The notes under the pieces are model-generated. The model saw only the letters and a list, made by a program, of their open reading frames with translations, ran no database searches and was not told where the DNA came from. From the sequence record SRR20825006_805: a stretch of 39,722 bases of DNA; one strand, written 5' to 3'. The position numbers were made by a program, and so were the translations under genes. Shown one piece after another: positions 1,961 to 32,258 of this stretch; positions within the stretch are counted from its first letter, which is position 1; each line of letters begins with the position of its first letter.

Positions 1961-3436
1961 ATGCAGGACACATCAGCGCGACGTCGGGGGAGACTTGTGA
2001 AGCGGAAATGGACAGCGATCATCGGCGACGCGATCCGAGATGGCTTCGGTCAAATTGGCATCGGGGCGCGAGATCGCTACACCACTGGCCTGAGCTCCAT
2101 TGTTCTGGAGCGTGACGTCGGGGGGACCCTCGCGCTGCTGCATTTGCGTGATCCATCGGGGACCAAGCTCGGGTTGTGTGAACTCACCGCGCCGATTCCC
2201 TGGATGTGGCCTCTCCACGACCGCCTTATTTATGGGACCTTCGATCATGACCTCGGCGACTTGATCGTCGGAGATCCTGCTTTCGACGAGTTCTTTCAAA
2301 TCGTGACAGAGGAACCACTGGGGTTGTTTCACGTCCTCTTTCGCGAGCGTCGCCTGGCGCTGCTCAGCCTGGTGCGGGAGCTTCGCCGCGAGAGCAAGCG
2401 TTTGCAGCTGGTCGTCGGTGGCGGGAAGGTCCACGCGACATTTTATATGGAGGACAAGAGGAAACTCAGTCCACATGCCGTATTCACGGCGCTCACCCAG
2501 TTTATGCAGCCTGCCCACGGGACCTTTTCCGATCGCTGGTCGTGTTTGCTCGATATCCTCACAGACCCTCGCGAGTCCGAGGGTTTCAAGGACGCCATCC
2601 TCGGCGCGCTTGCTCTCGAGCGCGCGCCTGTCCCTGACTCGTTTCGAGGTTGGTTGGAGGGCTCGATGTCTCCAGAGACGGAGTTGTCCGCCGCGCTTCA
2701 TGGCTTCTTCCCTGCGGGACGCACCTTTCATGTCATCCGCACACACGCGATGGCTGGCCACGAGCACCCACGCTTTCGGCAGATGGTCAGTTATTTCGCG
2801 AAGAGTTATCCCGCCAAGGCAACCTTCGACGAGGAGCTTCCGCTGGAGTTGAGGATCGAGGTCTTGAAGATGGCCTGGCAACAGCGCGTGGAGAAGACGC
2901 CAGGTTTGGAGAGGATGTTTTTGACGCTGTTGGACTCCAACGAGCGGTTGTGTGCGGCGTTGGTGCAGTGCATTCGAGAGTCGCTGACCGCGCGCCTCCA
3001 ACTCCCGGGAGAAAATTTGCGGGAGGTTCTCTTCTCGGCGCTGCCCGAGCTCCAGAAGAGGAGCGGCAAATTCTTGCGGCGAGAGCTCGTGGACGTGCTT
3101 TGTGCGCACGGCGAGGCGGAGGATACAGCGTCGATGCTCGCCGTACTCGAGCAACGTGTCGATGATAATAACGCGCTCCAGATCGTGCAGCGTCTGGGCG
3201 AGGTGGGAAACCTCTCGGCGCTCTCTCGCCTCGAGCAGCTCTCCATGCAGGAGCAACTCGGGCCGGTGAGCGAGGCGGCAGGGAGAGCGCACGCGGCGAT
3301 TCGCGCGCGTCACGCGGGCGCGACAGGCGGAGGGTTGACCCTCGCAGAACCTGGCGCAGGAGAGGAGGGGAGGCTCACGCTTGTCGCTGGAAACCAGGGC
3401 GGCATCTCGCTGGTGAAGGAAGACGAAGAGCCTTGA
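1961..3436 (+). CDS. HEAT-repeat-like hypothetical protein
   Basis: Helical C-terminus (LGEVGNLSALSRLEQL...AAGRAHAAIRAR) followed by a GGLTLAE..GRLTL tail. Start placed at ATG 1961 because the upstream part of the ORF overlaps oleC. Confidence 0.6.
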   Translation: MQDTSARRRGRLVKRKWTAIIGDAIRDGFGQIGIGARDRYTTGLSSIVLERDVGGTLALLHLRDPSGTKLGLCELTAPIPWMWPLHDRLIYGTFDHDLGDLIVGDPAFDEFFQIVTEEPLGLFHVLFRERRLALLSLVRELRRESKRLQLVVGGGKVHATFYMEDKRKLSPHAVFTALTQFMQPAHGTFSDRWSCLLDILTDPRESEGFKDAILGALALERAPVPDSFRGWLEGSMSPETELSAALHGFFPAGRTFHVIRTHAMAGHEHPRFRQMVSYFAKSYPAKATFDEELPLELRIEVLKMAWQQRVEKTPGLERMFLTLLDSNERLCAALVQCIRESLTARLQLPGENLREVLFSALPELQKRSGKFLRRELVDVLCAHGEAEDTASMLAVLEQRVDDNNALQIVQRLGEVGNLSALSRLEQLSMQEQLGPVSEAAGRAHAAIRARHAGATGGGLTLAEPGAGEEGRLTLVAGNQGGISLVKEDEEP

Positions 3437-3461
3437 TAAAAAAGAGATCGAGCAGGATCGG

Positions 3462-3490
3462 TTGCTAAGCAAGTCCGTGGGCCCTAGAAT
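3462..3490 (+). promoter_or_regulatory. candidate sigma70 promoter
   Basis: TTGCTA (3462-3467), 17-nt spacer, TAGAAT (3485-3490), intergenic and upstream of the CDS at 3624. Confidence 0.5.
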
Positions 3491-3623
3491 CAAAGAAGGT
3501 AGCGGGAAGATCCACGACTGCCGGCACGTTCGAGGCGAGTATGACCATTGTTCGGATGATTCATGCGCGCTCAGGCGTTCTCATCCATGGTAGATGGTCG
3601 AATGCCTCCACGAGAGTCTGAAA

Positions 3624-4769: not shown

Positions 4770-4803
4770 ACCTTTCTAAAATTTTCAGAACCCAGGGTTA
4801 GAC

Positions 4804-5565
4804 ATGCATGTGCTGGTGACGGGGGCTTCGAGTGGTATTGGCGAGGCCATGGCCCGTCACTGGGCAAGCCTTGGCGCGTCCTTGACCATCGCGGCGAGGC
4901 GCGAGGAGCGCTTGCGCGCGCTCGCCGAGGATCTCGATGTCGAGGTCTTCGTTCGCCCCACTGACCTGAGTGATCTGGAGCAGTGCGAGGCGCTTGTTCG
5001 GGAGTCGGTCGAGCAGCTCGGTCCGATCGATGTGCTGATCAACAACGCTGGCATCCAGTACGTCGAGGCCGCCGCTGGAGTCAGCCCCGAGCGCATCACC
5101 AGGTTGATGACGGTCGATTTGCTCGCGCCGCTTCATTTGATGCACTACGTGCTACAGGACATGCTCGAGCGCAAACAGGGCGCCATCGCCAACATCGCGA
5201 GCGTCGCGGGCATCGTGCACACGCCAGGGATGGCGCACTACAACAGCGCCAAGGCAGGTCTGGCGGCTGCATCCGAGAGCATGCGCGTCGAGCTCGCCAA
5301 CAGCGGCGTGCATATCCTGACCGTGTACCCTGGCCCCGTGCATTCTGATATGGAGGCCGCCGCCAGAGATCAGTTCGCGGACTCCTCGGCGGTCGAGCAT
5401 TTGCCGACCGGAAAACCTGGCGAGCTGGCGAAGCTCGTTGCCCTGGGGATCGAGAAGAAAAAAGCGCGTATCATTTACCCAAAGATCTACGCGTTCAACC
5501 GGAGCGCGCGAAACCTCTCGCAGTGGTTCACCGATCGCTTCGCGCCCCCTTTGAAGGACGAGTGA
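4804..5565 (+). CDS. short-chain dehydrogenase/reductase (SDR)
   Basis: TGASSGIG Rossmann motif, NNAG and catalytic YNSAK (YxxxK). Confidence 0.92.
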   Translation: MHVLVTGASSGIGEAMARHWASLGASLTIAARREERLRALAEDLDVEVFVRPTDLSDLEQCEALVRESVEQLGPIDVLINNAGIQYVEAAAGVSPERITRLMTVDLLAPLHLMHYVLQDMLERKQGAIANIASVAGIVHTPGMAHYNSAKAGLAAASESMRVELANSGVHILTVYPGPVHSDMEAAARDQFADSSAVEHLPTGKPGELAKLVALGIEKKKARIIYPKIYAFNRSARNLSQWFTDRFAPPLKDE

Positions 5566-5574: not shown

Positions 5575-8500
5575 TCACGAGTCCAGATCATAGCGGTTGA
5601 TGTAGCGATAGAGCGTGCGCTCGCTCACGCCAAGAATCTCTGCCGCTGCTGCGTAGTCCTCCCCAGCTTCCTCCAACGCATCCAACACATCTTGCTTCTT
5701 CGCCTTGGGTTTTCGCCCGCGGCGAGAGGCGCGCTTCTTCTCCTTCGCTCGCCTCGCGGTTGTCGTGGTGTCGCTGCCCTCTGTTGTTGTGGCGTCGTCA
5801 TTCGTGCGGCTGCGTAGCTGGATCATCGTGGCGAGCTCGCGCTCGGTGATAAGATCCTCCTCACACATCACGCACGCCGCGCGCAGCGTGTTCTCGAGCT
5901 GGCGCACGTTACCTGGCCACTGACACTCGCCGAGCAGGTGCGCCGCCCCTGGCGAGAGCTTGAGCTCTCGCCCGATGGTCTCGGGCGCGATGCGCGCGAG
6001 GAGGCGATGCGCGATTAATGGGATATCCTCGCGACGCTCGCGCAACGCTGGGATCGTGACCGTGAACGCGGCGAGCCTGTAGAACAGATCCTCGCGAAAC
6101 GTCCCCTCGGTGATCATCGTGTCCAGGTTGCGGTTGGTCGCTGCCACGATACGCACATCGATCGGTTCGGCGCGTGTGGCGCCCACGGGGCGAACCTTGC
6201 GCTCCTGGAGCACACGCAACAGCTTGACCTGCATCGCCAGCGGCATCTCGCCAAGCTCGTCCAGAAAGATCGTCCCGCCATTGGCCGCCTTGAACAGCCC
6301 CTCCCGATCGCGGGTCGCGCCGGTGAAGGCCCCTTTGACGTGCCCGAACAACTCTGACTCGAAGAGGCTCTCCGGGATCGCGCCGCAGTTGACCGGGATA
6401 AAGGGGCCGGGGCTCCTGGGGCTGGCCGAGTGAATCGCGCTGGCGATCAACTCCTTGCCCACGCCCGATTCGCCGTGGATCACCACGGGGATATCACTGC
6501 GCGCGACGCGCTCGACGCGCTGGAGCAGCCGCTCCATCACCGAAGAGGTGTAGGCGATGTCCGGGAACGCAGCGCGGAGGCCGCTCACGCGGCTGTCGCG
6601 CTGGCGCTCGACCTCCTCACTCAACATCGCGACGCGCTCCTCCAGGCCCTCGAGCATCGCCTCTCGCTCGCCGAGCAGGGTGTCGAGCTCGCGCTTTGCT
6701 TCCTCCAGTTCCTTGACCGTGCCCTCGAGTTGTTCGAGGCGCCGAGTGTTGGTGATTCCGATGGCGAGCTGGTGTCCAAACGCCTCCATCATGCGCCGCG
6801 TTTCACCCTGGAAGATGCCAGGGTGAAAGCGATGATCGATATAGAGCGCGCCCAATAACCCGGAGGCATCCCGCACAGGGACACACAACACACTGGTCAG
6901 GTCGAGGTCGACGACCGAGAGCGCGGCGTTGAACCGCTCGTCCTCGCGGGCATTGACCGTGGCCACGGTGCGGCCCGTGCGCGCGGCCTCTTCCGCGATC
7001 GTGAGGCTGACCTTGAGGTGAGGTCTCGGGATAGGATCGCCGTCGATGTCCTGGCTGGCGGCGATCAGGAATCCGCCCACGCGTTGTCCGTCGCCCTCTT
7101 CCTCATCGAGGAGCAGGAAGCCACGCTCTGCGCCGCTCAAACTCAGCGCGATCTCGAGCGCGCGACGCCAGAGCTGCTCGGGATCACGCTGGTGGAGGAT
7201 GATCTCGTTTAGCGAGAGCATCCTGTAGAAGCGCTCGATGATTCCGCCTTCGCCCCCGTCTCCAGACGAAGGGGCACTCTGTTTCGTGCGGCGAGGCGAA
7301 CCTTCGCGCACGCCTCCTCGCCGCATCGGATCGGATGATACGAGCGCGGAGAGGTCGGGGTAGTTCGCGAAGAAGTCCTCTCGCAACTCCTTGCCAAGAC
7401 CGGATGCGACCGCGTTGCGCGCTTGTTGGTTGAGCGATGTGACCTCGTCGACGAGCTCGTCGAGTGATTCCTGCTGTACGCGCTCGAAGAGTACCGGGCT
7501 GTACTTGAGCACCAGGCTGTAGTTGGTGCTCTCGAGCGCGTGATGGAGCGCCTTGCGGAACTTCTCGATCCCCGTCATCACCTCCAGAGAGCCGCCTTCT
7601 CGCCAGCCGAGCATCGCCTCGAGGATGTCGTGATGATCCTCGAGCGCGGCGAGAGCGTGGGTATCGATGAGCGTCCTCGCCTCATCCAACTGCGTCGACG
7701 CCGTCGCGAGGTCATCGAGCGACAGGTGCGCCTCGGACATGGTCAGCAAGAGGTCCACGTGCGCCGCTGGTGGTGGCGCGCCTCCCATCGCGAAGCATTT
7801 CTCGAGCAACGAGATCGCCTCCTCGTGTTCGCCGCGCATCGCCGCGAGCGATGCCTGGTAGGAGCGCGTCATGAGCTCGTGGCTCTTCAAGTCGTGCGCC
7901 CTGGCGAGTTCGAGCGCGCGCTCGAGGAGCGCGCTCGCTTCATCGAAGCGCCCGAGTAAGACATCGATGGCGGCGCTGTTGCTCGACAACAGCAGCCGGG
8001 TAGTGGGGCGCGTGGTCTCTTGCGCGATGCGCATCCCGCGAGCGTAGTACTCGCGCGCCAACCCGAGCTTTCCCTGGCTGTGGTAAGCCGTGCCGACGTT
8101 GAGGAGATAGAGCGGGAGCTCCGCGTCTAGCCCCGCGCGCTCGATGTGCTCGAGCGCGCGCAGGTAGGCATCCGTGGACGCTTCGCGTTCGGCGTTGTAC
8201 TTGAGGCCGATGGCGATATAGGCGTTCGCGCGCGCTCGGAGCATCGCCGGGATCTCCTCGCTTTCGAGCACCGGCAGGAGCTTTTGGAGTGCGGTGACCG
8301 ACTTCATATCGCCGCGCAGCGCGCGCGCGCCATGTTTGATGATCGAGAGATGCGCGATATCACTGGTGAGCGCGACTCCTTTGTCCTCATCGCTCGCGCG
8401 CCCCGACACGCCGAGTTCGTCGAGGCCACGCTCCGCGTGCTCGATGGCGCCTTCGTAATCACCAGAGGAGAGCGTCAGCTGCGCGCGCCAGAGCGCGAGC

Positions 8501-10467
8501 TTGGTGAGCTGACTTCGCGATGGTTTATCCGCTGTCAGCGCGAGCGCGTCATCGCTCAAGAACGCCAGCCCCTGACGATGCAGTCCCCTTCCATGCTCTA
8601 ACCTCGCGCGCAGGAGCGCGATCTCGACGCGCTCATCGGTGTTCAGCTCATGCTGCGCGCTCGCGCTGGCGAGCGCGCTCGCCAGCAGGTCATGAGAGGT
8701 CGCATCGGCGCCAGCGCGCAAGGTCGCATCGAGCCAGAGCTCGAACGCCTCGATCGAAGGCGTGTCCTCGAGCACCGCGTCTCGAAGCTCGCATTGGATC
8801 AGCGCCTCCTGACATGCTCCCTGCGCCATGAGGGTCTTTATCTCTTCCAGGCTCGCGGGTTCGAGATCCGTCGAGGTCGTCGCGTGCGGGTTGTGGCGGA
8901 TGCCGAGCTCTTCCTCGAGCGCGCGAAGCATCTCGCCGATCGAGTGACCGTAACGGGCCAGCAGTGATTCCCAGCGCGCGAGCCCGATGTCGCGCAACTG
9001 CGCGCGCAGTGAGCGCGCGCGCCACCGCTGCCACTGGCGCGGATCGGGTTGCGCCAGGATCTGCTCGTCGATGTGGTGCGCCGAGAGGTTGAGCGTGCGA
9101 TCACGCCGCGTGGTGGCGATAAGAGAGAGCGGGAGCTGTTCGCGTCGCGCCGCCTGGAGCGCGTGCGAGAGCCAGGCGCGAACATCGGGGCTTGCCAGAT
9201 CGAGGTCATCCCAGAGCAGCGTGATCCCGGTCGATTGCGCGGACACGGCGCCCAGCAAGGCTCGCGTCAACAACTCGAAGGTGTGCAACTGGTCACCCTG
9301 GCCCAGCGTTGGAGGCGCAGCGCCAAGGCGCGAGATAAGATCGAGCACCACGGACCAGGGGCCTTCGTGCGCTGGCGCGGGCCCTGGCGAAAAGAAGGCC
9401 ACGGCGCGTTTGTCGAGGGCTTGCTCGAAGATCGCGATCGGCGCCTCGCCACGTAGCTCGAGGCGCGCGCACACCTGGCGAAGTGTCTCCGTCTTTCCAG
9501 CGCCTCGGATTCCCTTGAGGAGCAGGAATTTACCGTCCTGTGGGTCCCACGAGCGAACGATCTCCTCGACGCGCGCGCGCATCGAGGGGTCATCGAAGAA
9601 GAGCGGCGTCTCGTTCGCGCTGTCGTTATCCACCGCGAGCGCATCCAGGAGCTCCTGGATAAGCGGGCGAGTGTTCGGGTCCTTGCCGAGCATACGCCGG
9701 ACGATCCCGCCGAGCTTGCCCTTCAGGGATGCCGGGATTTTGGGAGCCTCCTCGCAGTGGGCCATGGCCCACTGCGTGAGGTTATCTCCTGTGAGCGGAT
9801 AGGCTCCCGAGACCATCCAGCAGATCAGGCAACCGAGCGCGTACATGTCCGCGGCGTGGCTCGGGGACGCGCCATTCCACAGCTCGGGCGCCATGCAAGG
9901 CGCGCTGCCGAGCACATGCCCCCGCTCGCTCTGGCGCATATCCAGCAGCGGAAAGTCGATGAGTGAGATCTCGTCCTCGGGCGTCACGAGCACGTTGTGA
10001 GGTTGGAGATCGCCGTGCACGAGCTGATCGTCGTGCAAGTCTCTGACGTGGAGCGCGATCGCCAGCGCGATCTCGCGCCAGCGCTCGCGCAGCAACTCGG
10101 TGGCCTCATCTGCCAGAGGTTTCCCTGGAATCCATGCCCTCGCGCTCAAAAACCACGCGCCCTCTTTCAGGCCAAGGTGTGCACGCGCTGGCTCGTCCAG
10201 CGCGTAAAACCAGTCCCATCGAGGGGAACCCTCCCGGCCAGGGAGTCTGGCGGCCAGGGCCAATTCGAGCGGCGAGGCGAAGCGCTCGGATTGTTTGCTC
10301 GCCTTGATAATCAGATCTCCCACGCGCCAGGTCTTCTCGGAGGGATGATCCCCGAGCTTCGCGGTTGCTGAGAGTTTGTCGGCCAAACGAGGCAGAGGAC
10401 GGGTCATGTCATTCGTCGGGTCAAGAGGCATGCGAAGTGAGGACAACATGTTCCTATTTTGTCGCAA
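5575..10467 (-). CDS. multidomain sigma54 enhancer-binding protein: kinase-like, P-loop NTPase, TPR, GAF, coiled coil, AAA+ and Fis-type HTH
   Basis: Kinase-like HGDLQPHN and GSAPCMAPE; Walker A GIRGAGKT and Walker B-like LLWDD; TPR-like helices; GAF ([15 protein letters not shown]); [23 protein letters not shown] and [30 protein letters not shown]. The start could be 10449, 10431 or 10407. Confidence 0.9.
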
Positions 10468-10471
10468 ATAT

Positions 10472-10485
10472 TGTCAATTATGACA
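10472..10485. promoter_or_regulatory. candidate upstream activator site (palindrome TGTCA-ATTA-TGACA)
   Basis: Perfect 5-bp inverted repeat about 120 bp upstream of the predicted sigma54 start site, next to a TTTTGTCGCA half-site. Confidence 0.55.
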
Positions 10486-10521
10486 TTGGATGTTCTGTGA
10501 GAAAGCTGGGTTTTTGTTTTG

Positions 10522-10534
10522 TTTCAGTTGGTTA
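10522..10534 (+). promoter_or_regulatory. IHF-like site
   Basis: TTTCAGTTGGTTA has one mismatch to WATCARNNNNTTR, is preceded by a T-tract, and lies between the activator site and the -24/-12 element. Confidence 0.4.
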
Positions 10535-10572
10535 TGCGGTGTTTTTGCGTCGCCGGGGCTGGCGCGAGGGGC

Positions 10573-10588
10573 TGGCACGTGGCTTGCT
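10573..10588 (+). promoter_or_regulatory. sigma54 (-24/-12) promoter
   Basis: TGGCACGTGGCTTGCT is an exact match to TGGCACG-N4-TTGCW and is divergent from a sigma54 activator gene. Confidence 0.85.
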
Positions 10589-10707
10589 ACAAAGCCATTG
10601 TGGTAGAAGACGACCTTTGTTTTTATGGTTCGAGAGACCAGAGACATGCATGACGCCCGATTTTTCGCATGAGAGGTGAAGCGGTGGCTCATCGTGATGG
10701 TGACGAT

Positions 10708-11811: not shown

Positions 11812-11964
11812 TCCGGGCAATGATTCCTGCGCGCAAGAAACAAATTGGGCCGCTGCGTTGCTTTCACGATGGGACATCTTGTAGGTTCAAGAAGAGCGCC
11901 TCTGGCAGCGCTCGGAACGTGAAGATACGAGGCGCCAAGCCTTCAAGCATTGCAGGGAACATCC

Positions 11965-13152: not shown

Positions 13153-13168
13153 TCACTCGAGAAGAGCA

Positions 13169-13224
13169 GCAAGAAATGAGGCGAGGCGGACCTGCACACA
13201 GGTCCGCCTCGCCTCATTTCTTGC
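13169..13224. terminator. perfect 26-bp hairpin, probable bidirectional terminator, containing one GGCGAG-N22-CTCGCC copy
   Basis: GCAAGAAATGAGGCGAGGCGGACCTG-CACA-CAGGTCCGCCTCGCCTCATTTCTTGC between convergent genes. Confidence 0.8.
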
Positions 13225-13239
13225 CCGTTGTTTTCTCGA

Positions 13240-19778: not shown

Positions 19779-21824
19779 CTACTTCTTCTTCTCTCTAAAG
19801 CCACCCTCGACGTTGAAGACCTTCGCGCCATTCTGATCGTAGACGTTGTACTTGCAGGTGAGCGTGCCTTCGAGTTTGCGGTGTGGCGCGAGCTTCGGGA
19901 GCGCCTCCTCGATGCAAGGAGGTCCTTCGAGCAGGGTGGCTTTTCCTGCCTCGACCTGAATGCGTGCCTCCTGCTTTCCTGGCTGTCCCTGGACGCATGC
20001 GCCGATTCTGTTGCATCCGCCAAACCGCAGCTCCTGCGCGTTCTCGCGGAGCGTTTGCTCGAGCGCCTTTTGGTCGAGCCTCTCCTTGGTTGCAGTCTGG
20101 GCCTCCTTCAAGAACTCCTCGTAGCGCTTTTCGGTGTCCTCCTCTGGTTTGAGGATGAGGATATTTCGATCCTCGGGGAGTGGCCGTGAGAGGATGGGGT
20201 CTCTCAGCACCAGAACTCCTTCTTCGCTTATGTAGAGAGCTCGCGAGAGCTTGAGCGTCTCTGCGATCATTCGGGTTTTGTCCGAGACATAGAGCGAGTC
20301 CAGGATGCGGATCCTTTGGAGATGCGCGAACGCGGTTCCGTTCATGTGAATCCTCTCGATGTCAAAGTCATTGCCTTCTAATCTCGAGTTCTCCGAGAGG
20401 TAAAGCGTGTCTCCTTTCGTGTTCGAGAGGTTGATTCGGGAGTCCCCATTCGTGGTGATCGTGTCGAAGGAGCCACCGCGAAGGTCGAGCTCCGAGTCAT
20501 CCAGATTGAGCGATTTGATGGTGACACCGACAAGCTCGACCTTGGCCTTCTTGTTCATGGTTATCCCCTTGATATCGAACCCTTCGAGTATCAGGTGGCA
20601 GCCATCTGAGGCATAAATCGACTTGTAGCGCTGCGGCGCTCCATGTTCTCCCGCCTTCAGCTTCAAGGAGATGCTGCTCGTGCAACGGTAGGAGCCTCCC
20701 TCGCCGGGCATTCGCAGCGCCTGAGTACGCAGCAGGAGCGGCTTCATAAACGATGGCGCCATATCCGCCGGGATGCGCCACATGATCGGGGTGGAGACGG
20801 CGACCAAAATCACTGTCGCGATGGCGCCAAGGGTGATCCTCGACCTCCAACTCGATGGCTTTGACTGCTCGCCCGTCCATTGATCGAGCATCGGATTCTC
20901 AGCGCTCTTCGCGACCGCGACAGCGGAAGATTTCTGCGGCGAGGGGCGCTTGACCATCGCAGTGCTCGCCGCAGGTTTTGACTCCTTTGCAGTGACAGCG
21001 AGCGCCTCTTCGAGCGCGCTGCGTGCGGTGTGGGCATCATCGAAGCGCTCGCCTTTCTCCGGGCGCGTGAGCACCTCGAGCCAGTCGCGAAATGCCTCGG
21101 GGGTGTCTTCGGGGAGCTTGTCGAAGTTCAGGACAAAGGATGTGGAGACGTGCAGGCGCATGTCTTCTGTGCCGATGCCCGCGAGCAATGCGTAGAGCGT
21201 GGCGCCCAGGCCGTACAAATCAGTGCGCTCGTCGACGCCGGTGTTAAAGAACTGCTCGGGCGCCATGAACCCCGGCGTCCCCGCGGCGACCGTGGAGCTC
21301 GATCCTTCGCGTTGCGCGTCTCTCGCCAAACCGAAGTCGATCAGGTGAACCTCGCCATGTTCGTGGCGAAGGATGTTCTCGGGCTTGAGATCTCGGTGAA
21401 TGATCGGTGGGTTGCGGTTCTGCAAGTCGACCAGGATATCGAGCAAATCGCGCGCGATTTGCTCGACCTCTGCAAACTCCCAACGTCTGCGGTGTGACAG
21501 CGGTGGCGCCTGAACCCGCTCCTGCACGAGCCAGAAGCCGTCCTCGACCTGGAAGGCATCCAGAAACGCCGGGATAGAGGGGTGATCCAGGCTCTGCAAC
21601 GTCTCGAGCTCGCGCTGGTGCGCCTTGAACCCTGCCCAGTCCGCGTCCTCGCGCGCGAAGGAGAACTGCTTGATGATCACTTCTCGACCATCTGTGAGCC
21701 GCGTCGCAGCATAAGTCAGGCGACCGCCGCTTACATTCCGGCCAAGAACCTCACCCAACCGATAGCCATGCTTTTCCTCTCCGACACCCAAGGGAACCTC
21801 CTGCAAACGCTGCGAGTTCCACAA
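19779..21824 (-). CDS. membrane Ser/Thr protein kinase with a beta-helix-like extracytoplasmic domain
   Basis: VIIK, HRDLKPEN, DFG and GTPGFMAPE; TM helix ITLGAIATVILVAVS; about 19-aa beta-solenoid repeats in the C-terminal half. Confidence 0.88.
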   Translation of the reverse strand: MWNSQRLQEVPLGVGEEKHGYRLGEVLGRNVSGGRLTYAATRLTDGREVIIKQFSFAREDADWAGFKAHQRELETLQSLDHPSIPAFLDAFQVEDGFWLVQERVQAPPLSHRRRWEFAEVEQIARDLLDILVDLQNRNPPIIHRDLKPENILRHEHGEVHLIDFGLARDAQREGSSSTVAAGTPGFMAPEQFFNTGVDERTDLYGLGATLYALLAGIGTEDMRLHVSTSFVLNFDKLPEDTPEAFRDWLEVLTRPEKGERFDDAHTARSALEEALAVTAKESKPAASTAMVKRPSPQKSSAVAVAKSAENPMLDQWTGEQSKPSSWRSRITLGAIATVILVAVSTPIMWRIPADMAPSFMKPLLLRTQALRMPGEGGSYRCTSSISLKLKAGEHGAPQRYKSIYASDGCHLILEGFDIKGITMNKKAKVELVGVTIKSLNLDDSELDLRGGSFDTITTNGDSRINLSNTKGDTLYLSENSRLEGNDFDIERIHMNGTAFAHLQRIRILDSLYVSDKTRMIAETLKLSRALYISEEGVLVLRDPILSRPLPEDRNILILKPEEDTEKRYEEFLKEAQTATKERLDQKALEQTLRENAQELRFGGCNRIGACVQGQPGKQEARIQVEAGKATLLEGPPCIEEALPKLAPHRKLEGTLTCKYNVYDQNGAKVFNVEGGFREKKK

Positions 21825-22050: not shown

Positions 22051-23013
22051 TCACTGGGCGTTAAATATGGCGTTGGCGATGCTGCTCCATAGCGGGAGCA
22101 GCAACAGCGAGAGGATCGAGGACCAGACGATCGCTGCGCCCACGCGATCGGACCTCGCGCCCGCCTGGTGAGCCATCGAGAAGGTCGTGATCGCCACCGG
22201 CATCGAGGCGAGCACGACATGCAGCGCGGCGTACTCGCCGGAGATCCAGCCAAGGCGCCAGCCGAGCAGCATCACGCCGAGCATCAGCGCGGGCGTGATC
22301 GCCTGCCTTACGAGCAAGTGCCCCAAAAGCGGGAGATCGCGCGCGGCGAGTCGATCGCGTTGTCGATACAGGTAGAGTCCCAACAAAAACAGCGCCACGG
22401 GGGCTGCTGATGCGGCGAGGGGCTTGAGCCAGGTGATCGCCTCGCCGCGCGCTGCTTCGGGCAGCGCGCGCAACGCGAGCCCGACAGCGGGCGCCCAGAA
22501 GAGCGGTTGTTTGGCGACGCGCAGGATCAGCTCCCTGGCGCCCGGCTTATCCTCGCCGCCAGACCAGAGCGCGAGGACAGTGGGGCCTAACGTGACGGCG
22601 CCCGTGACGTGAATGGCGACGGCGAGCGCTGCGGCGCCGCCGATTTGCTCGCCGAAGGTGGCGCGCACGTAGGGGAGTCCTAAATAGGCGACGTTCCCGA
22701 AGACGACGACCAGCGAGAGGGTGCCCAGTGATTCTCGCCATGCTGGGATGATTCGCAGCGTGAGGAGCATGACCGCGAGGCAGATCGGCCAGGCCAGGTA
22801 GAAGAGCGGAGATGATGGGAGCGCGAGCCTCGCGTCGACCAACCCGAGCGCGATCAGCGCGGGGAAGCCGATGTTCAGGGCGTAGGTGTTGAGCGTGGTG
22901 ATCGCCTCTTCCGGGTCGCGAAATAGACCAGCCCTCCCGGCGATGGCGCCGAGGAATGCGGGGATAGCCAGTTGGAAGAGGCGCGGTGCGGTGTCGAGGG
23001 CTGCTTGCAGCAA
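22051..23013 (-). CDS. AEC (auxin efflux carrier) family transporter
   Basis: Multiple TM helices; motifs YALNIGFPAL, FGNVAYLGLP, APVALFLLG and SMPVAIT. TTG start 23013 chosen to avoid overlap with the upstream gene. Confidence 0.85.
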   Translation of the reverse strand: MLQAALDTAPRLFQLAIPAFLGAIAGRAGLFRDPEEAITTLNTYALNIGFPALIALGLVDARLALPSSPLFYLAWPICLAVMLLTLRIIPAWRESLGTLSLVVVFGNVAYLGLPYVRATFGEQIGGAAALAVAIHVTGAVTLGPTVLALWSGGEDKPGARELILRVAKQPLFWAPAVGLALRALPEAARGEAITWLKPLAASAAPVALFLLGLYLYRQRDRLAARDLPLLGHLLVRQAITPALMLGVMLLGWRLGWISGEYAALHVVLASMPVAITTFSMAHQAGARSDRVGAAIVWSSILSLLLLPLWSSIANAIFNAQ

Positions 23014-23674: not shown

Positions 23675-23880
23675 GGATGACTCGGGGGCAAAGTTTGCGG
23701 CGAGGGAGGGGTGTAAGCGTGCTCCCCTCGCCGCACTTTTTTCAAGGTCAGTGACAATTTTTGGCCACTGCGACAAAAATGGCAGAGGAGTCCTGGGTAA
23801 AACAACAGATCTTTGAGAGCACTTCCACGTTAAGAACTCGCGCACCCGCATGGCACCGTCAATGAAATGACGGTCGTTAT

Positions 23881-24211: not shown

Positions 24212-25807
24212 TCAGCCATCGAGGCTGCGAAAACGCAACGTGTCACCGTCGCGCTCTGCGCGACCGACTTCGTGCAAGTGGATCAGGTGCGCGGTCAGGC
24301 TCATGGCCGCCAGAAACCAAACGGTCTCGGGCACATCTTTGTAAACGATCGGGACCAGATCCATCGGTTCTGCCCATACGTCACTCGCGGCCTGCGAGTG
24401 GTCCTCCAACGCCTGATAAACCTGTTCTTCTCGCGCCAACCTGTGCTGCTCGTACTCTTCGAGCTTTTGCCTCGGCGTGACGATCGTCCAACCATGCGAG
24501 GGATGGAGCGCGCCGAGGTTCATCGCTTTCACGCGCGCCAGACTCTCCAGGTAGTCGCCCATATGACCTTCCGGCGGCCTGACGAGAATTGTCCCTTTCG
24601 ATGCCACCAAATCGCCGCTGAACATCGTGTTCGAGCGTTTGTGCAACAGCGCGATGTGCCCTGGCGCGTGCCCCGGCGTGAACACGCACTCCAGGTCGTG
24701 CTCGCCGCCATCGAGCGTGATGATATCCCCATCCTCGAGCAACCTCGCCAGCTTCGGGTATTTGCTCCCGAGCAGCTCGCCAGTGATTTCATGCGCCCAT
24801 AATGGAACCTCGCCATATCTCTCGAGCAAGGCCGGGACGCCACACACATGATCGACGTGATGGTGCGTGAGCACGATCGCCTCGAACGCGGCGCCACGCG
24901 CGAGCAAGGTGTCTATGGCTGGGTAGAGCATCGCCAGTTGTTCTGGATCGTCAGTCCCAGGATCGACGACGACAAAGGTCTCCTTGCCGATGATGGCGCA
25001 GTTGGTGTGCGTCGCGGGTGGGATGGTCGGGCTCTCGAGCGAGATCATGTAAGTCCCGCCGATGTGCTCGATCAAGGTGAGCGGGTCCATCGCGTCCTGA
25101 TCCACGCGCGTGAGTGATTCATGCGCTGCGCCAGTGATTTGCGTGGCCATCTGCCTGAGGATCGCGATGGTCGGCGCGGAGAGCATGACCTCGCCATGCT
25201 CGTGCATTCTGACCGCTTCGGCTGGCGTGATCCACGCTGCATCCTGGAGCTCGCTCGCTTGCACATCTTCGCATATCGCGTCGCTCTGGACCTGCGCTGC
25301 TTCCTCTTCTGTGAGCACCGCCAGGAAGAACTCGGTCTCGAAGCGGATCGGTATCCACTCCGGCGTGGTCCATCGCCCGATCGGTCTGTAACGCTGCGCG
25401 TCGACAGGGGGTAATGATGAGGCGAGGAGCGCGTCCAGGAAGTGCTCCTCGCCGCTGTTCGTGTCCGAATCATTCGCGCTCGAACGCCTCATTTGCTCGA
25501 GCTGAGCTGATGTCAGCGACGAGCAGGACGACACGTTGTGTTTTGACAGCGGCCCTTCGCTCGAGAAGAGGACGCCGACCTCTTCGAACAGCTCGCGAGC
25601 AGCGCAACCGAGCAACGCGCGCATGCTGGCGTCCTCGACTTCACCGCTCATCGGGATCTCGTCATCACCATCCTCGAGCGATCCACCGGGGAAGGCGTGG
25701 AACCCACCGAGAAAGGCGAGCTCCGGGCGTCGCCTCGCCCAGAAGATTTCGAACTTGTCGTCGCGAACGCGGGCGAGGATGGCGCAAGAGGAGAGCCTCG
25801 GTTTCAT
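24212..25807 (-). CDS. NUDIX hydrolase / metallo-beta-lactamase-fold (LACTB2-like) fusion
   Basis: FPGG...AARELFEEVG NUDIX box and WTTP..RFETEFF; MBL motifs THHHVDH, TPGHAPGH, SGD and PSHG. Start ATG 25807. Confidence 0.88.
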   Translation of the reverse strand: MKPRLSSCAILARVRDDKFEIFWARRRPELAFLGGFHAFPGGSLEDGDDEIPMSGEVEDASMRALLGCAARELFEEVGVLFSSEGPLSKHNVSSCSSLTSAQLEQMRRSSANDSDTNSGEEHFLDALLASSLPPVDAQRYRPIGRWTTPEWIPIRFETEFFLAVLTEEEAAQVQSDAICEDVQASELQDAAWITPAEAVRMHEHGEVMLSAPTIAILRQMATQITGAAHESLTRVDQDAMDPLTLIEHIGGTYMISLESPTIPPATHTNCAIIGKETFVVVDPGTDDPEQLAMLYPAIDTLLARGAAFEAIVLTHHHVDHVCGVPALLERYGEVPLWAHEITGELLGSKYPKLARLLEDGDIITLDGGEHDLECVFTPGHAPGHIALLHKRSNTMFSGDLVASKGTILVRPPEGHMGDYLESLARVKAMNLGALHPSHGWTIVTPRQKLEEYEQHRLAREEQVYQALEDHSQAASDVWAEPMDLVPIVYKDVPETVWFLAAMSLTAHLIHLHEVGRAERDGDTLRFRSLDG

Positions 25808-25844: not shown

Positions 25845-26801
25845 TTAGGCCCGCGCCGCGCTGAGCGCGGCCGCGCCGAGCATCCCGGCGATGTCCCCGA
25901 GCGTTGGCTCGGCCAACGCGAGGTCCTCGCGCGCGGCATGCAGAATCAATGGGGTCAATCGTGACAAGGTTTGCGCGCGAAAGCGACCGCAGTTCTCCCA
26001 GACGCCTCCACCCATCAGCAGCAAGGATGGGTTGAGCAGCGTGCACGCGTTGGCGATCACGAGCGCGAGCTTTTTCGAGGCATCTTCCCACATCGCTTCG
26101 AGCGCAGGCCACTGATCTGATGCCTGGTCTGCGGCGAGGAGGTCGACGTTTTTGCCGTCCTCGCCGCCAAGAATCGCGTCGCGCAGCTCCTGTGGTGCGT
26201 CGAGCAGTGCTTGTTTCGTGAGCGCTTCCAGGTGGATGCCGCCAGCGTAGGCTTCCAGGCAACCGTGTTCGCCACACCCGCAGATGCGGCCGCCAGGTTC
26301 GACCTTGGCGTGGCCGATTTCTCCGGCCTTTCCGCCACCTCCTTCGAGGAGCTTGTGACCAGCGATGATTCCTCCGCCGACGCCCGTGCCGACATACACG
26401 GCGAGGATGTCCGAGTGATTTTGTGCGGCGCCTGCTGTGTACTCGCCCCAGAGGAGGGCGTTGAGGTCATTGACCAACAACACGGGCGCCTCGACTGGCA
26501 AGGTCTCTTCCAAAACCTTCGCGAAGTCGAGGTTTCTCCAACCGAGGTTTGGCGCGTTGATGACGGTGCGACCGTCGAGCTCGAGCTGGGCGGCGATGCC
26601 GACGCCGACGGACTCGATGACGCTGGCGTCCTGCCAGAGCTCTTCCAGCAGTTCCTCGAGCAGGGCGCGCATGATGCCCGCGACGCCCGCCGGGGAGGTG
26701 TCATCGCGGAGCCTCGCGCGTCGTGTGGCCAACGTCGAGAAGGATGCATCGAAAGCGCAGATGCGGGCATTCGTCCCGCCGATATCATAGCCAATTCTCA
26801 A
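25845..26801 (-). CDS. ROK family sugar kinase (glucokinase-like)
   Basis: GYDIGGT, NDLNA, GTGVGGG, GEIGH and CGCGEHGCLE. TTG start after GAGG. Confidence 0.9.
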   Translation of the reverse strand: MRIGYDIGGTNARICAFDASFSTLATRRARLRDDTSPAGVAGIMRALLEELLEELWQDASVIESVGVGIAAQLELDGRTVINAPNLGWRNLDFAKVLEETLPVEAPVLLVNDLNALLWGEYTAGAAQNHSDILAVYVGTGVGGGIIAGHKLLEGGGGKAGEIGHAKVEPGGRICGCGEHGCLEAYAGGIHLEALTKQALLDAPQELRDAILGGEDGKNVDLLAADQASDQWPALEAMWEDASKKLALVIANACTLLNPSLLLMGGGVWENCGRFRAQTLSRLTPLILHAAREDLALAEPTLGDIAGMLGAAALSAARA

Positions 26802-27807: not shown

Positions 27808-27979
27808 GGCGGAACTCTCGGCGTATCGCGCTTAACGCTGCGGCGAGCATCATGTATGCTCCCTGTGACTCGCCGCATGAAATTTAGGATGGGGGATGCC
27901 TGATAACCGAGTCGGTTGGACGGGGTCCTCCTTTCATGACTTTGTGGCAAGCTGACAAAACCAATAAAAGGAAAGAAAG

Positions 27980-28546: not shown

Positions 28547-28548
28547 GT

Positions 28549-29433
28549 GTGAAAGTGTTCAGAGAACAAGTCACAGCGAACATCATCGCGTCGACCGTGC
28601 TCGCGCTCGGCGCGGTGATGTTCTGGTCTCCTGACGTCCAGGCACAGGAAGAGGATCCCTTCGAGGACGAGTTTGGAGAGGTCTCCAAGCCCGCGCCCGA
28701 GGCGGAGCCCGAAGCCAAAGAGCCTGCGCGTCAAGAAGAGGCAAGCGTCGAGGAAGAGAGCGCCCCGCGCAAAAAGCTCGCTCCCGGTCGACTGCGCGTC
28801 GGTGGGCGGATCGGAGGCTCTTACAATCAGCTCTCTCGTCCGACTGATCCCGCTGGTGAGCCGACGCTGCTCTATGGGTCGGTGTTCAGCGGTCCAGGCT
28901 TTATGGTCGGCGCGCAGGCGAGTTTCCTGGCGACGAGCTCTGATTACCTGGACATCCTGCTCGAGCTCGGGTTGCTCTACGGGTTCTCACAGGGCACCGG
29001 TTATGCCGAGAGCATCGATGGGAGTCAGCGCCAGACGATCCAACTTCGCAGCCACGGCGTGCGCGTGCCGTTGCTCTTGCGCCTCGGTTCGCGCGGCGAG
29101 GGGCGCGTGCGTCTGTCGCTGCTCGCCGGACCTGAGTTGTTGTTGGGGCTCGCCAGTTCGGCGACCGTGACCAACGAGGGGATCGAGGATGAGCCGCAAC
29201 CGCTCTACACGAAACCTGTGACACACCTCGGGTTGAGCGCGGGGTTGGGGTTAAACTTCAACCTCGGGAAGGTTCGGGTGCCGCTCGACTTCAGGTTGAC
29301 CTGGGACCCGATGGTGCCAGGTTCCACGCGCGAGCGCTTCGAAGGTTTTCAGAGCCTCGATGATCCCGGCACCTACCAAGTCGGGTTCGACACCCAGTTG
29401 CTCTTTTTGCTGGGGGTAGAGTACGCGCTCTGA
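28549..29433 (+). CDS. putative outer-membrane beta-barrel protein, paralog of 26932..27807
   Basis: Signal peptide ending VQA, acidic linker, beta-strands and C-terminal LGVEYAL. Shares motifs with the upstream paralog. Confidence 0.7.
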   Translation: MKVFREQVTANIIASTVLALGAVMFWSPDVQAQEEDPFEDEFGEVSKPAPEAEPEAKEPARQEEASVEEESAPRKKLAPGRLRVGGRIGGSYNQLSRPTDPAGEPTLLYGSVFSGPGFMVGAQASFLATSSDYLDILLELGLLYGFSQGTGYAESIDGSQRQTIQLRSHGVRVPLLLRLGSRGEGRVRLSLLAGPELLLGLASSATVTNEGIEDEPQPLYTKPVTHLGLSAGLGLNFNLGKVRVPLDFRLTWDPMVPGSTRERFEGFQSLDDPGTYQVGFDTQLLFLLGVEYAL

Positions 29434-29490
29434 AGTTTGTGACCCCTCTTTTCGCGAACCCAAAGAACGATATTTTCAGCTGGTGGCACC

Positions 29491-32037
29491 ATGAGTTCTG
29501 AGACGCACGAACGATTCGAAGATGCAAACGAGCAAGATGCTCTCGAGGGGAAGCGTGAGGATGGCATGGGGACGGATGGCGAGGTGTCCTCCGAGTTCCG
29601 CGTCAAACCTGGCACCCAGGGCGAACACCCCGAGTTCGAGTCCGATTTGTTCGAGCTCGAGATGCTCTCGCCGCCAGCCTCATCTTCATCCTCATCCTCG
29701 GATTCTGACGACCAGTCCGCGTCGCAAATCCTCGAAGAGGTGGTCTTGCCTGCTCCGGAAGGGAGCGATGGCGCGATCGAGACCTCGGAACCGATCGAGC
29801 CTTTTCAGCAGCTCCACGAGGAGTTCGGTTTTGATGGCGGCCTGAGCTCCAACGTTCGCAGCGAGGCGCTCGAAGAGGACGAGACCGACCCGGCGGCTTA
29901 CTTGCTCGGCTTGCTCGGTGAGGCGAGGCACAAGACTTCTGTCCCGCTCTCGCCGATCGCGAGCGAAGAGCTCGACGTGTTCGATTACTACATCAACCGC
30001 GAGCTCTCCTGGCTCGAGTTCAACGCGCGGGTGCTCGCTCAGGCCACCGACGAGAGCATCCCGGCGCTCGAGCGCCTCAAGTTCCTGTGTATCTCGAGCA
30101 CGAACCTCGACGAGTTCTTCGAGGTTCGCGTCGCCAGGTTGATGCAACACATTCGCCTGGACTCTCCGAGGATCGGCCCCGATGGGCTGACGCCACAGGA
30201 GCAGCTCGAGCGCATCTACGAGTTCACGCATCGTTTCGTGGACGAGCAGTACAAGATCCTCAATGACGTGCTCTTGCCAAAGCTCGCCGAAGAAGGCATC
30301 CGCTTCGTGCGCCGCACCGAGTGGAACGAGGCGCAGGCTGAATGGGTCGCAGAATACTTCCGTCAGGAGGTCCTACCCGTGCTCAGTCCGTTGGGGTTAG
30401 ATCCTGCGCACCCGTTCCCACGCATCCTCAACAAGAGCCTGAACTTTATCGTGTCGCTGTCTGGCGAGGACGCCTTCGGGCGCGCGAGCGGCATCGCCGT
30501 GGTGCAAGCGCCGCGCTCGCTCCCCAGGCTCATCAAGATGTCTCCTGATGTCATCGAGGGGCCGAACAATTTCGTGTTCCTCTCCTCGATCATCCACGCC
30601 CACGTGAACTCGCTCTTCCCGGGCATGACCGTCAATGGGTGTTATCAGTTCCGCGTGACGCGTAACGCCGAGTTGTTCGTGGACGAGGAGGACGTCGAGG
30701 ATCTGATGATCGCGCTCGAGGACGAGCTCTACGGTCGTCACTACGGCGCAGCGGTACGACTCGAGGTCGCGGATAACTGTCCGATGAGCGCCGCGAGGTT
30801 CCTGCTCGATCAGTTCGAACTCACCGAGGACAACCTCTATCAGGTCAACGGCCCGGTGAATCTGAACCGCCTGATGATGATTCCGAGCGAGGTGGACAGG
30901 CCAGATCTCAAGTTCCCTTCGTTTGTGCCACGCGTGGTGCATAGCTCGGATCGTGGAAAGGGGGACATCTTCGACCGGTTGCGCGAGGAGGATATCTTCC
31001 TCCACCACCCGTTCGAGTCCTTCTCCACGGTGATCGATTTCATCCGCCAGGCTTCGCAAGATCCTGACGTGCTCGCCATCAAGCAGACGGTGTATCGCAC
31101 GATGAGCGATTCTGCGATCGTGGATGCGTTGGTCGAGGCGGCGCGCAGCGGCAAGGAGGTCACCGCAGTGATCGAGCTGCGGGCGCGCTTTGACGAGGAG
31201 CGAAACATCCAGATCGCGAGCCGTTTGCAAGAGGCAGGCGCGCACGTGGTGTATGGCGTCGTCGGGTACAAGACACACGCCAAGATGTTGCTCGTGGTGC
31301 GCCGCGAGAGCGGCGGGCTAAAGCGTTACGTCCACCTCGGGACGGGCAATTATCACCCGCGCACCACGAAGCTCTACACGGACTTCGGGCTCCTCACTGG
31401 CGATGATGATCTCGGTGAGGATGTCCACAAGATGTTCCAGCAGCTCACGGGCTTGGGTAAGGTGCTCGAGCTCAAGAAGGCGTTGCAGTCGCCGTTCTCG
31501 TTGCACAGCGCGTTGCTCGCCAAGATCGATCGCGAGGCGAGGTTTGCCAGAGCTGGACGGTCCGCTTACATCGTCGCCAAGATGAACTCCTTGACCGAGG
31601 TCGAGGTGATCAAGGCGCTGTATATGGCGAGTCGCGCGGGCGTCAAAATCGATCTTATCATTCGCGGCATCTGCCGCCTGCGCCCTGGGATTCCCGGCAT
31701 CTCCGATAATATTCGGGTGCGCTCGATCGTAGGTCGTTTCCTCGAGCACCCGCGCGTCTACAGTTTCTACAACGATGGCGATCCCGAGCTTTACTGCTCG
31801 AGCGCCGACTGGATGACGCGCAACCTCGTGCGGCGCGTCGAGGCGGCCTTCCCGATCGAAGCGGCGCATCTGAAGCGACGTGTGATCCGCGAGGGCTTCG
31901 AGGTCTACCTTTTGGATAATCAGCAAGCCTGGGAGCTCAACGCCGACGCGACTTACACACGCGTCGAGCGCGCGCCGGGCGAGCCTGCGCGAAGCGCGCA
32001 GGGGATGTTGCTCGCAGAACTCACGGAAGGAGCTTGA
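29491..32037 (+). CDS. ppk1: polyphosphate kinase 1 with a long acidic N-terminal extension
   Basis: YINRELSWLEFNARVL, NLDEFFEVRVA, HHPFESF, ELRARFDEERNI, KTHAK, GTGNY, GRFLEH and SSADWMTRN. Confidence 0.95.
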   Translation: MSSETHERFEDANEQDALEGKREDGMGTDGEVSSEFRVKPGTQGEHPEFESDLFELEMLSPPASSSSSSSDSDDQSASQILEEVVLPAPEGSDGAIETSEPIEPFQQLHEEFGFDGGLSSNVRSEALEEDETDPAAYLLGLLGEARHKTSVPLSPIASEELDVFDYYINRELSWLEFNARVLAQATDESIPALERLKFLCISSTNLDEFFEVRVARLMQHIRLDSPRIGPDGLTPQEQLERIYEFTHRFVDEQYKILNDVLLPKLAEEGIRFVRRTEWNEAQAEWVAEYFRQEVLPVLSPLGLDPAHPFPRILNKSLNFIVSLSGEDAFGRASGIAVVQAPRSLPRLIKMSPDVIEGPNNFVFLSSIIHAHVNSLFPGMTVNGCYQFRVTRNAELFVDEEDVEDLMIALEDELYGRHYGAAVRLEVADNCPMSAARFLLDQFELTEDNLYQVNGPVNLNRLMMIPSEVDRPDLKFPSFVPRVVHSSDRGKGDIFDRLREEDIFLHHPFESFSTVIDFIRQASQDPDVLAIKQTVYRTMSDSAIVDALVEAARSGKEVTAVIELRARFDEERNIQIASRLQEAGAHVVYGVVGYKTHAKMLLVVRRESGGLKRYVHLGTGNYHPRTTKLYTDFGLLTGDDDLGEDVHKMFQQLTGLGKVLELKKALQSPFSLHSALLAKIDREARFARAGRSAYIVAKMNSLTEVEVIKALYMASRAGVKIDLIIRGICRLRPGIPGISDNIRVRSIVGRFLEHPRVYSFYNDGDPELYCSSADWMTRNLVRRVEAAFPIEAAHLKRRVIREGFEVYLLDNQQAWELNADATYTRVERAPGEPARSAQGMLLAELTEGA

Positions 32038-32258
32038 CGCCATTGGAACTCGAGCTAACAGTCAACGGCGAAGCGCGCCATGTGGCGCGAGAAGATGCGG
32101 CGAGCGTCGAGGCACTGCTTCACGCTCTCGCCGTCACACAACGCCGCGGAGTCGCCGTGGCGGTCAATGACGCCGTGATCCCGAAGAGCCGCTGGGCCGA
32201 ACATGCCCTCGAGGATGGGGACCGCGTCGAGATCATCCAGGCGACCCAGGGAGGGTAG
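32034..32258 (+). CDS. thiS: sulfur carrier protein ThiS
   Basis: VNGE, VAVAVN and [10 protein letters not shown] with C-terminal GG, upstream of thiG. Start is TTG 32034 or 32043. Confidence 0.9.

Follow-up and report, generated by a model that had tools for sequence, protein, structure and literature searches.

The 39,722-base stretch of record SRR20825006_805, referred to here as the window, carries many copies of a gapped palindrome, (t)GCGGCGAG(RR)-N21/22-(YY)CTCGCCGC(a), 37-38 bp in total. We conclude with high confidence, a grade that covers the following statements jointly, that it is greatly over-represented, that it occurs both in coding DNA (about three quarters of copies, in all three frames) and in intergenic DNA, that its half-sites are under strong nucleotide-level purifying constraint while spacers and flanks evolve freely, and that its coding copies, as comparison with homologous sequences indicates, were written in place via base substitutions, some of them amino-acid-changing, in tolerant segments and with no insertion. 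The signal resides in the DNA rather than in the peptide. To separate the two, codons were permuted within each of 26 coding sequences, leaving proteins and codon usage unchanged; 16 coding sites were observed, compared to 2.06 ± 1.2 (maximum 6) across 200 of these synonymous shuffles.

Exact matches to GCGGCGAG-N15..30-CTCGCCGC numbered 10 in the window against 0.01 expected from dinucleotide-preserving shuffles, and the maximum across 100 such shuffles was a single match. Among all gaps from 0 to 60, an excess was found at 21 and 22 only (seven and three exact copies, respectively). With up to two mismatches, gap 21 held 15 rows and gap 22 held eight, compared with 56 for the other 59 gaps together (highest 6); the neighbouring gaps of 20 and 23 contributed one and none. 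Likewise, the 6-base cores alone (GGCGAG and CTCGCC) formed 15 and 9 pairs at gaps 21 and 22, against 0.58 per gap elsewhere. The 23 rows at these two gaps correspond to 22 places, as two sites are nested at 33122-33168. Perfect 10-bp arms, reported in an initial annotation of this DNA, read as it stated at 7287-7325 (TGCGGCGAGG...CCTCGCCGCA), 20934-20974 (CTGCGGCGAG...CTCGCCGCAG), and 26131-26167 (GCGGCGAGGA...TCCTCGCCGC). Spacers are unrelated from copy to copy—only the arms are common to all. A literature search, with subscription journals outside its coverage, returned no description of the motif among the matches listed, and no dif-like recombinase site was found in the window or in the loci of the relative introduced below.

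Constraint and distribution of the motif

A search with ppk1 led to a contig (L001) of a Myxococcota metagenome-assembled genome (MAG) with 93% protein identity, the next matches being of Bradymonadales type at 63-72%. This 5.6-Mb MAG, here called G001, is the source of all genome-wide figures. It is colinear with the window over positions 71-33140 and 35582-39580, at 84-87% nucleotide identity, and 19 of the 21 alignable window sites are found at the same place in both; two are present only in the window and two only in G001. With sites ascertained in the window alone and the G001 bases compared, arms differed at 4/336 bases (1.2%), spacers at 122/464 (26%), 20-bp flanks at 184/851 (22%), and the remaining alignment at 5677/35423 (16%). 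At third codon positions, two of 72 arm bases differed compared to 3515/10867 (32%) elsewhere (Fisher p 8e-10), and among non-coding bases, none of 104 arm bases differed compared to 561/2810 of the others (p 3e-10). These figures, together with the synonymous shuffles, bear out the initial annotation's proposal that the signal acts at the level of the nucleic acid. Spacing is intact despite nearly full rewriting of the spacer at two sites (20936 and 23697). Sites fall in fast-evolving parts of proteins: within spacers, 23% of first and 22% of second codon positions differ, compared to 9% and 5%, respectively, over the remainder of the genes. This agrees with the earlier suggestion that the motif occupies stretches in which a protein can accept change.

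Turnover between the window and G001 has involved point changes (at 22619 and at a G001-only site in the AEC-type transporter gene) and one 12-bp deletion, in the gene encoding a metallo-beta-lactamase (MBL)-domain protein. At the population level, at least half of the words of a 9.9-kb stretch were present in 13 public runs, mostly marine metagenomes; in four runs, no arm variants were seen among 40 of 775 variant places, with about 0.5 expected by chance.

Across G001, we counted 168 exact 8+8 sites compared to 0 for a reversed control, and 446 core sites compared to 1. The 40 nearest genomes held 1-52 core pairs (controls 0-10), and 112 other species genomes of the class held only 0-3 exact sites each, such that one of 113 genomes is enriched and the motif is therefore restricted to the lineage that the window shares with G001. 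By this distribution, the motif arose before the window and G001 diverged and after both had separated from the nearest of the other genomes sampled. Arms outside sites occur at background level: about 0.2 lone 8-mers per kb remain in the window after the arms of sites are subtracted by hand, and site-free stretches of G001 hold 0.23-0.44 per kb. Viral contigs were at chance level, with 77 of 80 loci among the matches listed carrying one core site and three carrying two, and thus gave no phage of the lineage for comparison. A de novo method that recovers the motif in both the window and G001 found no other prominent gapped palindrome in G014, G017, G020, G015, or L002-4 (40-140 kb each), a weak negative result given that samples were small and the motif is patchy.

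Within G001, a MAG of unordered contigs, density is very uneven, at 0 to 0.6 per kb. The counterpart of the window (C160) holds 19 core sites in 33 kb, and another contig (C6) holds 18 in its first 40 kb and 0 in the next 13 kb. Six contigs totalling 96 kb (C2, C3, C4, C5, C7, and C104), chosen by number or via an unrelated match, are free of sites, compared to 7.7 expected from the mean of 0.08 per kb; C6, C14, C29, C35, and C60 were chosen for their listed sites. The contigs compared have the same G+C and tetranucleotide make-up (r >= 0.915, and >= 0.96 for stretches >5 kb) and carry core genes, including the nuo operon, parAB, methylmalonyl-CoA mutase, and biotin carboxylase, and thus are not foreign islands.

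Half-sites on duplex DNA or a hairpin

Taken as a whole, these observations are best explained, in our judgement with confidence slightly on the favourable side of even, by a genus-level genomic signature site: two inverted half-sites at an exact, unconstrained gap of 21 or 22 bp. The half-site consensus is t-G-C-GGCGAG-R-R, with the inner edges of the inverted pair 21 or 22 bp apart. Half-sites would be read independently on double-stranded DNA by a putative two-fold symmetric (dimeric) protein, the reach of which would set the spacing. For reading of the duplex by a dimer specifically, which the sequence pattern suggests, we would put the chances a little short of even. Selection for binding, as in the organisation of the nucleoid or of chromosome domains, could maintain the motif, or else a drive like that of the DNA uptake sequences (DUS) of Neisseria and the uptake signal sequences (USS) of Pasteurellaceae; our confidence in any particular cellular role is low.

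Two half-sites on duplex DNA are favoured because there is no covariation at the semi-conserved arm positions, no G·U bias among mismatches, and a length that is fixed whatever the spacer. The half-site has an asymmetric extension, with T at -3 in 45% of cases, G at -2 in 63-73%, and C at -1 in 83-84%; on its inner side, a purine occupies +6 and +7 in 68-84%, and T makes up merely 3-9% at +6 to +9. When right arms were shuffled among 70 sites, mirrored pairing at positions -4 to -1 and +6 to +8 was not above that of the shuffles (for example, 52 pairs at -1 vs 49.9 expected and 36 at -2 vs 34.6). Symmetric arm variants at two sites (3108, A...T; 13178, GAG...CTC) had given an appearance of covariation, of which this 70-site test found none. 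On the sense strand of 38 imperfect coding sites, 51 mirrored positions depart from Watson-Crick pairing (3 G·T, 10 A·C, and 38 unpairable) and, as there is no wobble bias, give no sign of a preserved mRNA stem. The length remains 37-38 bp irrespective of interior pairing.

An unlikely alternative is that the arms form the base of a hairpin in single-stranded nucleic acid, either an mRNA stem-loop, which might stabilise, terminate, or help process the transcript, or a DNA hairpin that arises while DNA is replicated, taken up, or transferred. The arms are G+C-rich and perfectly complementary, and the placement of copies is also suggestive: of the window's six intergenic places, four are located 19-37 nt past a stop codon, and in a wider sample of the window plus 20 stretches of G001 (71 core-exact sites, from one MAG with crude open reading frame (ORF) calls), 18 sites are intergenic though about 90% of the sequence falls within stop-to-stop ORFs. 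In the same sample, additional inner pairing, scored as folding better than the same arms with shuffled spacers (z<-2), is found at 5/18 intergenic sites, all strong full hairpins, and at 6/53 coding sites. On the other hand, a stem-loop does not require a loop fixed at 21-22 nt, and the semi-conserved arm positions and mismatches show neither the covariation nor the G·U preference of a conserved stem. Most spacers of coding sites contribute no structure (mean folding z -0.57), and no Rfam family matched the window at the gathering threshold. With respect to intrinsic terminators the picture is mixed: some copies just past stop codons are strong hairpins, T runs are weak or unconserved, and most copies lie within genes.

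Several observations nevertheless weigh against a site read purely as two half-sites on duplex DNA. Pairing at +9 exceeds that of shuffles (31 vs 20.7), the source being full hairpins, and the sites at 13178, 23697, and 35602 retain a hairpin via compensatory changes between the window and G001; because of these two results, strand folding matters for at least a subset of sites. The arms by themselves give a stable 8-bp G+C stem (mean minimum free energy (MFE) about -18 kcal/mol with shuffled spacers), which makes a hairpin energetically plausible, and covariation can be assessed at flanking positions only, since the core 6-mers are fixed by site selection. The reliance of the wider sample on a single MAG and crude ORF calls is to be counted here as well. 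Finally, no described protein known to us recognises half-sites of 8-12 bp with their centres some 27-30 bp from each other. In our preferred reading, a minority of intergenic copies, mostly just past stop codons, would in addition have acquired a fully paired interior, through elaboration into transcript-end hairpins or recruitment from them, and probably double as such hairpins.

We regard it as quite improbable that the element is a restriction-modification or orphan methyltransferase-type site of long bipartite specificity, kept abundant in the way proposed for the cyanobacterial palindrome HIP1 through a link to methylases. The element shares with half-HsdS type I specificities a symmetric, bipartite layout around a non-specific spacer, though spacers of the described enzymes of this kind are shorter than 10 bp. 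Moreover, the element tolerates a gap difference of 1 bp (21 in 24 cases and 22 in 23 among the G001 loci), unlike their rigid spacers, and genomes usually avoid restriction targets instead of enriching and conserving them. HIP1 itself is reported to be recognised by two methylases.

Returning to a duplex site read by a dimeric protein, a more specific version, which we think unlikely though worth stating, is that the element would be a 37-38-bp symmetric 'bar code' spread by molecular drive in a young marine Myxococcota (Bradymonadales-like) genus. A predator exposed to prey DNA might favour its own DNA during uptake or recombination, and this preference could be the drive; alternatively, the drive might be a chromosome-domain organiser active in certain regions only. 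If so, this would be the first bipartite, fixed-gap counterpart of DUS, USS, and HIP1, with a birth recent enough to trace.

Origin of coding copies and comparison with known systems

Genes were mapped with Pfam (E<=1e-5), which identified an AMP-binding enzyme, SDR, activator, PEGA protein, AAA ATPase, alpha/beta hydrolase, Fpg, TPR protein, 681-aa kinase, AEC-type transporter, metallo-beta-lactamase-domain protein, ROK kinase, cyclophilin, outer membrane protein (OMP) barrel, ppk1, thiG, thiE, glmS, and ABC transporter. Coding copies number 16, as the initial annotation had counted, with 15 within Pfam-mapped genes and one in a ThiS-like ORF (32034-32258; 74 aa with a C-terminal GG). All peptides that it quoted were reproduced, as was the absence of the motif from glmS, the AMP-binding gene that it called oleC, thiG, and the catalytic domains of ppk1, where we found none even at up to two mismatches. 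Three of its gene names were not confirmed: 'HEAT' was given to a 612-aa ORF without a Pfam family at this threshold, 'NUDIX' to an ORF that carries metallo-beta-lactamase domains only, and 'oleC' to a gene for which Pfam gives merely AMP-binding enzyme.

All three reading frames are in use, again as first described: the 12 gap-21 coding copies divide into 7 (GGC-GAG...CTC-GCC), 3, and 2. The four gap-22 coding copies have arms in differing frames, which had been noted for those in SDR, thiS, and AAA and is true of the activator copy as well. In the wider sample, 53 of 71 sites (75%) are coding, divided between gaps 21 and 22 as 32 vs 21 (intergenic, 7 vs 11), and the gap-21 coding sites fall into frames as 22, 2, and 8. 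The bias is thus toward the frame built of common codons, GGC, GAG, CTC, and GCC being common in the window lineage, with every frame in use. Arm codons are mostly common ones, with few rare codons (CGA 2, CGG 1, and AGG 1 of 60), a pattern that is indecisive alone.

To examine how copies arose, we aligned five proteins that carry sites with their homologues in the 40 nearest species genomes, where identity reached about 65% at most and no genome is motif-enriched. The site span was indel-free in 14/15 distant homologues of the SDR protein, in 6/6, 5/6, and 6/6 orthologues for the three AEC sites, and in 12/12 located orthologues of the AAA ATPase, as expected under the initial proposal of point substitution rather than insertion. 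At the ROK and MBL sites, which are in variable-length loops, 9/18 located ROK orthologues are of equal length at the site and most MBL orthologues are shorter by one residue. At all seven sites examined against distant orthologues, inserted residues were absent. None of the distant homologues has the site itself: the best had three mismatches at the right spacing, and one had two mismatches at the wrong spacing. The motif is thus neither tied to a single frame or conserved peptide nor present in distant orthologues.

The codons themselves illustrate how the arms were assembled. In the SDR protein, A-A-R-R-x3-L-x-A-L-A is conserved, and the window lineage uses GCG GCG AGR ... CTC GCC, compared to mostly CGN at that Arg, plus CTG/GCN codons, in homologues. 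In the AEC transporter, one arm often pre-exists in orthologues (GGC GAG in Y-G-E; CTC GCC GCA in P-L-A-A), and the second came via amino-acid replacement, for example P to G (CCC GAG -> GGC GAG).

Spread of a miniature mobile element through insertion is accordingly largely refuted, and we consider it very improbable, whether in the form of repetitive extragenic palindromic (REP) sequences or REPINs with their transposase (RAYT), a miniature inverted-repeat transposable element, or an in-frame insert like the Rickettsia palindromic elements (RPEs). REP sequences are palindromic units of 20-40 bp with high copy number (PMC3733652). The element, at 37-38 bp, falls in this range and, like REP sequences and the mosaic elements that they form (BIMEs), has inverted-repeat ends, some full intergenic palindromes, and some hairpins behind genes. 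REP sequences, however, are extragenic and conserved over their full length, with a GTAG or CGTC head and a RAYT gene, whereas 75% of the element's copies are coding (16/23 rows in the window) and its interior is free: spacers are unrelated among copies, and orthologous copies are conserved in the arms only. The Y1 transposase family (PF01797) had no match in the G001 MAG and was present in all four motif-free relatives searched. RPEs share with the element the occurrence of palindromic repeats inside protein-coding genes. They are inserts of 100-150 bp that add residues, whereas the element involves no length change relative to orthologues (5/5 sites in length-conserved protein segments are indel-free), and neither 37 nor 38 bp is divisible by three.

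The remaining idea is that codon usage, together with frequent G-E ... L-A peptides, yields the motif as a side effect of a G+C-rich genome. It can claim the common codons and the preferred frame (22/32 gap-21 coding sites) and is next to impossible, given that other in-frame gaps show no excess, that shuffles preserving proteins and codons fall far short of the observed count, that intergenic copies exist and are conserved (0/104 changes), and that 112 class genomes of similar make-up hold 0-3 copies.

Among described systems, the element behaves like uptake sequences, inverted pairs of which also occur behind genes. Both comprise hundreds to thousands of copies, are lineage-specific, and occupy non-coding DNA as well as several frames of coding DNA; in both, coding copies are at weakly conserved residues, in preferred-codon frames, and made in place. 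Findlay and Redfield describe uptake sequences that accumulate in place, in preferred-codon frames and at poorly conserved residues, and that alter peptide frequencies (PMC2817400). DUS and USS are, however, single asymmetric words of 9-12 bp, whereas the element requires two inverted arms at a 21/22-bp gap, arms on their own being at background. A patchy density (0 to 0.6 per kb) also sets it apart from them. They are also defined by biased uptake, and the likeness of the element is one of sequence behaviour, so that the comparison with DUS and HIP1 drawn in the initial annotation is a behavioural analogy only.

HIP1 (GCGATCGC) of cyanobacteria, whose function has been debated for decades, is likewise a hyper-abundant palindrome conserved between genomes beyond neutral expectation. 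It is contiguous and 8 bp long, contains methylase sites, and occurs phylum-wide, whereas the element is bipartite, 37-38 bp long, and found in one of 113 class genomes plus the window organism. According to Xu et al., HIP1 is conserved within and between ORFs, which points to selection with no peptide or RNA role, and its distribution is uneven and periodic on a 10-90 kb scale, for which a role in chromosome structure was suggested (PMC5861425). Among the unordered contigs of the G001 MAG, counts run from none over 96 kb up to 19 sites over 33 kb.

The element also resembles sites of chromosome organisation. matS, parS, and Noc/SlmA sites are palindromic duplex sites read by dimers, tolerated in genes, and regionally distributed. 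The element is likewise palindromic, tolerated in genes, and apparently regional, and on its sequence would likewise be read by a dimer on the duplex; those sites are contiguous palindromes of 13-16 bp in tens of copies, whereas the element is gapped and present in hundreds.

The element is a bipartite form that is new among hyper-abundant genomic signal words. Words such as DUS, USS, Chi, and HIP1 give a rare view of DNA-level processes that shape genomes and proteomes, and here amino-acid changes are the price of writing the motif into proteins. The narrow range (1/113 class genomes) implies recency and makes the dynamics of origin tractable, with two species about 15% apart to set against motif-free relatives; the putative reader protein should be tractable to isolate with a 37-bp duplex. 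For annotation, the recurrent peptides (G-E-x7-L-A and others) and intragenic stems are a hazard, being mistakable for protein motifs or RNA elements.

Individual sites and neighbouring genes

Places of the gapped palindrome in the window, with location and comparison to G001 or distant homologues
Position	Strand	Gap and arms	Location	Observations
3108..3144	.	gap 21, 1+1 mismatches (symmetric A...T)	612-aa ORF, GEAEDTASMLA	common to G001
4891..4928	.	gap 22	SDR gene (AARREERLRALAE)	Arg codons AGG/AGA; indel-free in 14/15 distant homologues
5719..5755	.	gap 21	sigma-54 activator, ~aa 1571, linker preceding HTH	
7288..7324	.	exact, gap 21, 10-bp arms	activator linker, TPR to GAF	
7646..7683	.	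gap 22	TPR region of activator	
10269..10305	.	gap 21, 0+2 mismatches	kinase N-lobe of activator	
13178..13215	.	gap 22	intergenic, convergent genes	full 17-bp hairpin, MFE -38.1, z -5.7; G001 loop altered, stem retained
14597..14634	.	gap 22	AAA ATPase (EEARCVELLHRLAAAD)	indel-free in 12/12
20936..20972	.	exact, gap 21	Ser/Thr kinase linker (AASTAMVKRPSP)	G001 spacer strongly diverged, spacing same
22205..22241	.	gap 21	AEC transporter, GEYAALHVVLA	
22412..22448	.	exact, gap 21	AEC transporter, GEAITWLKPLA	
22619..22655	.	gap 21	AEC transporter, GEQIGGAAALA	G001 copy decayed via point changes
23697..23734	.	exact, gap 22	intergenic	G001 inner stem rebuilt using other bases
25419..25455	.	gap 21	MBL-domain ORF, GEEHFLDALLA	G001 without one arm (12-bp deletion)
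26131..26167	.	exact, gap 21	ROK kinase, variable loop, GEDGKNVDLLA	
27840..27876	.	exact, gap 21	intergenic, 33 nt 3' of 304-aa ORF stop	
29093..29129	.	gap 21	OMP beta-barrel gene, GEGRVRLSLLA	
29920..29956	.	gap 21	ppk1 lineage-specific N-terminal extension (EARHKTSVPLSP)	
32097..32134	.	gap 22	thiS (32034-32258)	
33122..33168	.	nested exact pair 33122-33158 + 33132-33168, gap 21	19 nt 3' of thiG stop	
35602..35639	.	exact, gap 22	intergenic, 37 nt past glmS stop	z -5.1; extended stem with compensatory A-T -> G-C change in G001
37632..37669	.	exact, gap 22	intergenic, divergent glmS / ABC transporter	inner pairing absent

Some places have features of their own. The nested sites at 33122-33168 are offset by 10 bases and form a single long perfect hairpin between the thiG stop and thiE. 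The site at 27840 lies about 100 nt 5' of the cyclophilin gene, and 27834-27882 is identical to G001 over 49/49 bases including the spacer, compared to a 26% difference for other spacers; from this identity, the site may have an extra function. The three AEC sites (22205, 22412, and 22619) are spaced by exactly 207 bp (69 codons), which may reflect chance or a repeated helix layout of the protein. The sole gap-20 near-site in the window (24673-24708) has two mismatches, both in the left arm, and is probably a chance occurrence or a decayed copy.

Two of the genes that carry copies are unusual in their architecture. On the - strand, 5575-10467 is a single 1630-aa ORF with the order Ser/Thr kinase-AAA16-TPR-GAF-sigma-54 AAA+ activator-HTH, and it holds four copies. 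Residues 1-165 of ppk1 (29491-29985) form an acidic, Ser-rich N-terminal extension that holds one copy and is matched by the 93%-identical relative only; 40 other ppk1 loci match from residue 141 or later, most from 165-167.

In G001, the C160 matches to the AEC, AAA, and MBL genes contain one in-frame stop each (TGA, TGA, and TAA, respectively), which may represent overrun of the true starts or assembly errors. Two ORFs were also observed on contigs free of sites: at 92-622 of locus L082 (contig C2), a 177-aa ORF adjoining the nuo operon belongs by its match to PF00502 (E 2.5e-11) with the phycobilisome proteins, although this genome is non-cyanobacterial, and at 8205-14279 of locus L086 (contig C7), a 2025-aa ORF has SpvB, TcdB-middle, FG-GAP, and RHS-repeat domains and is a Tc/Rhs-type large protein.

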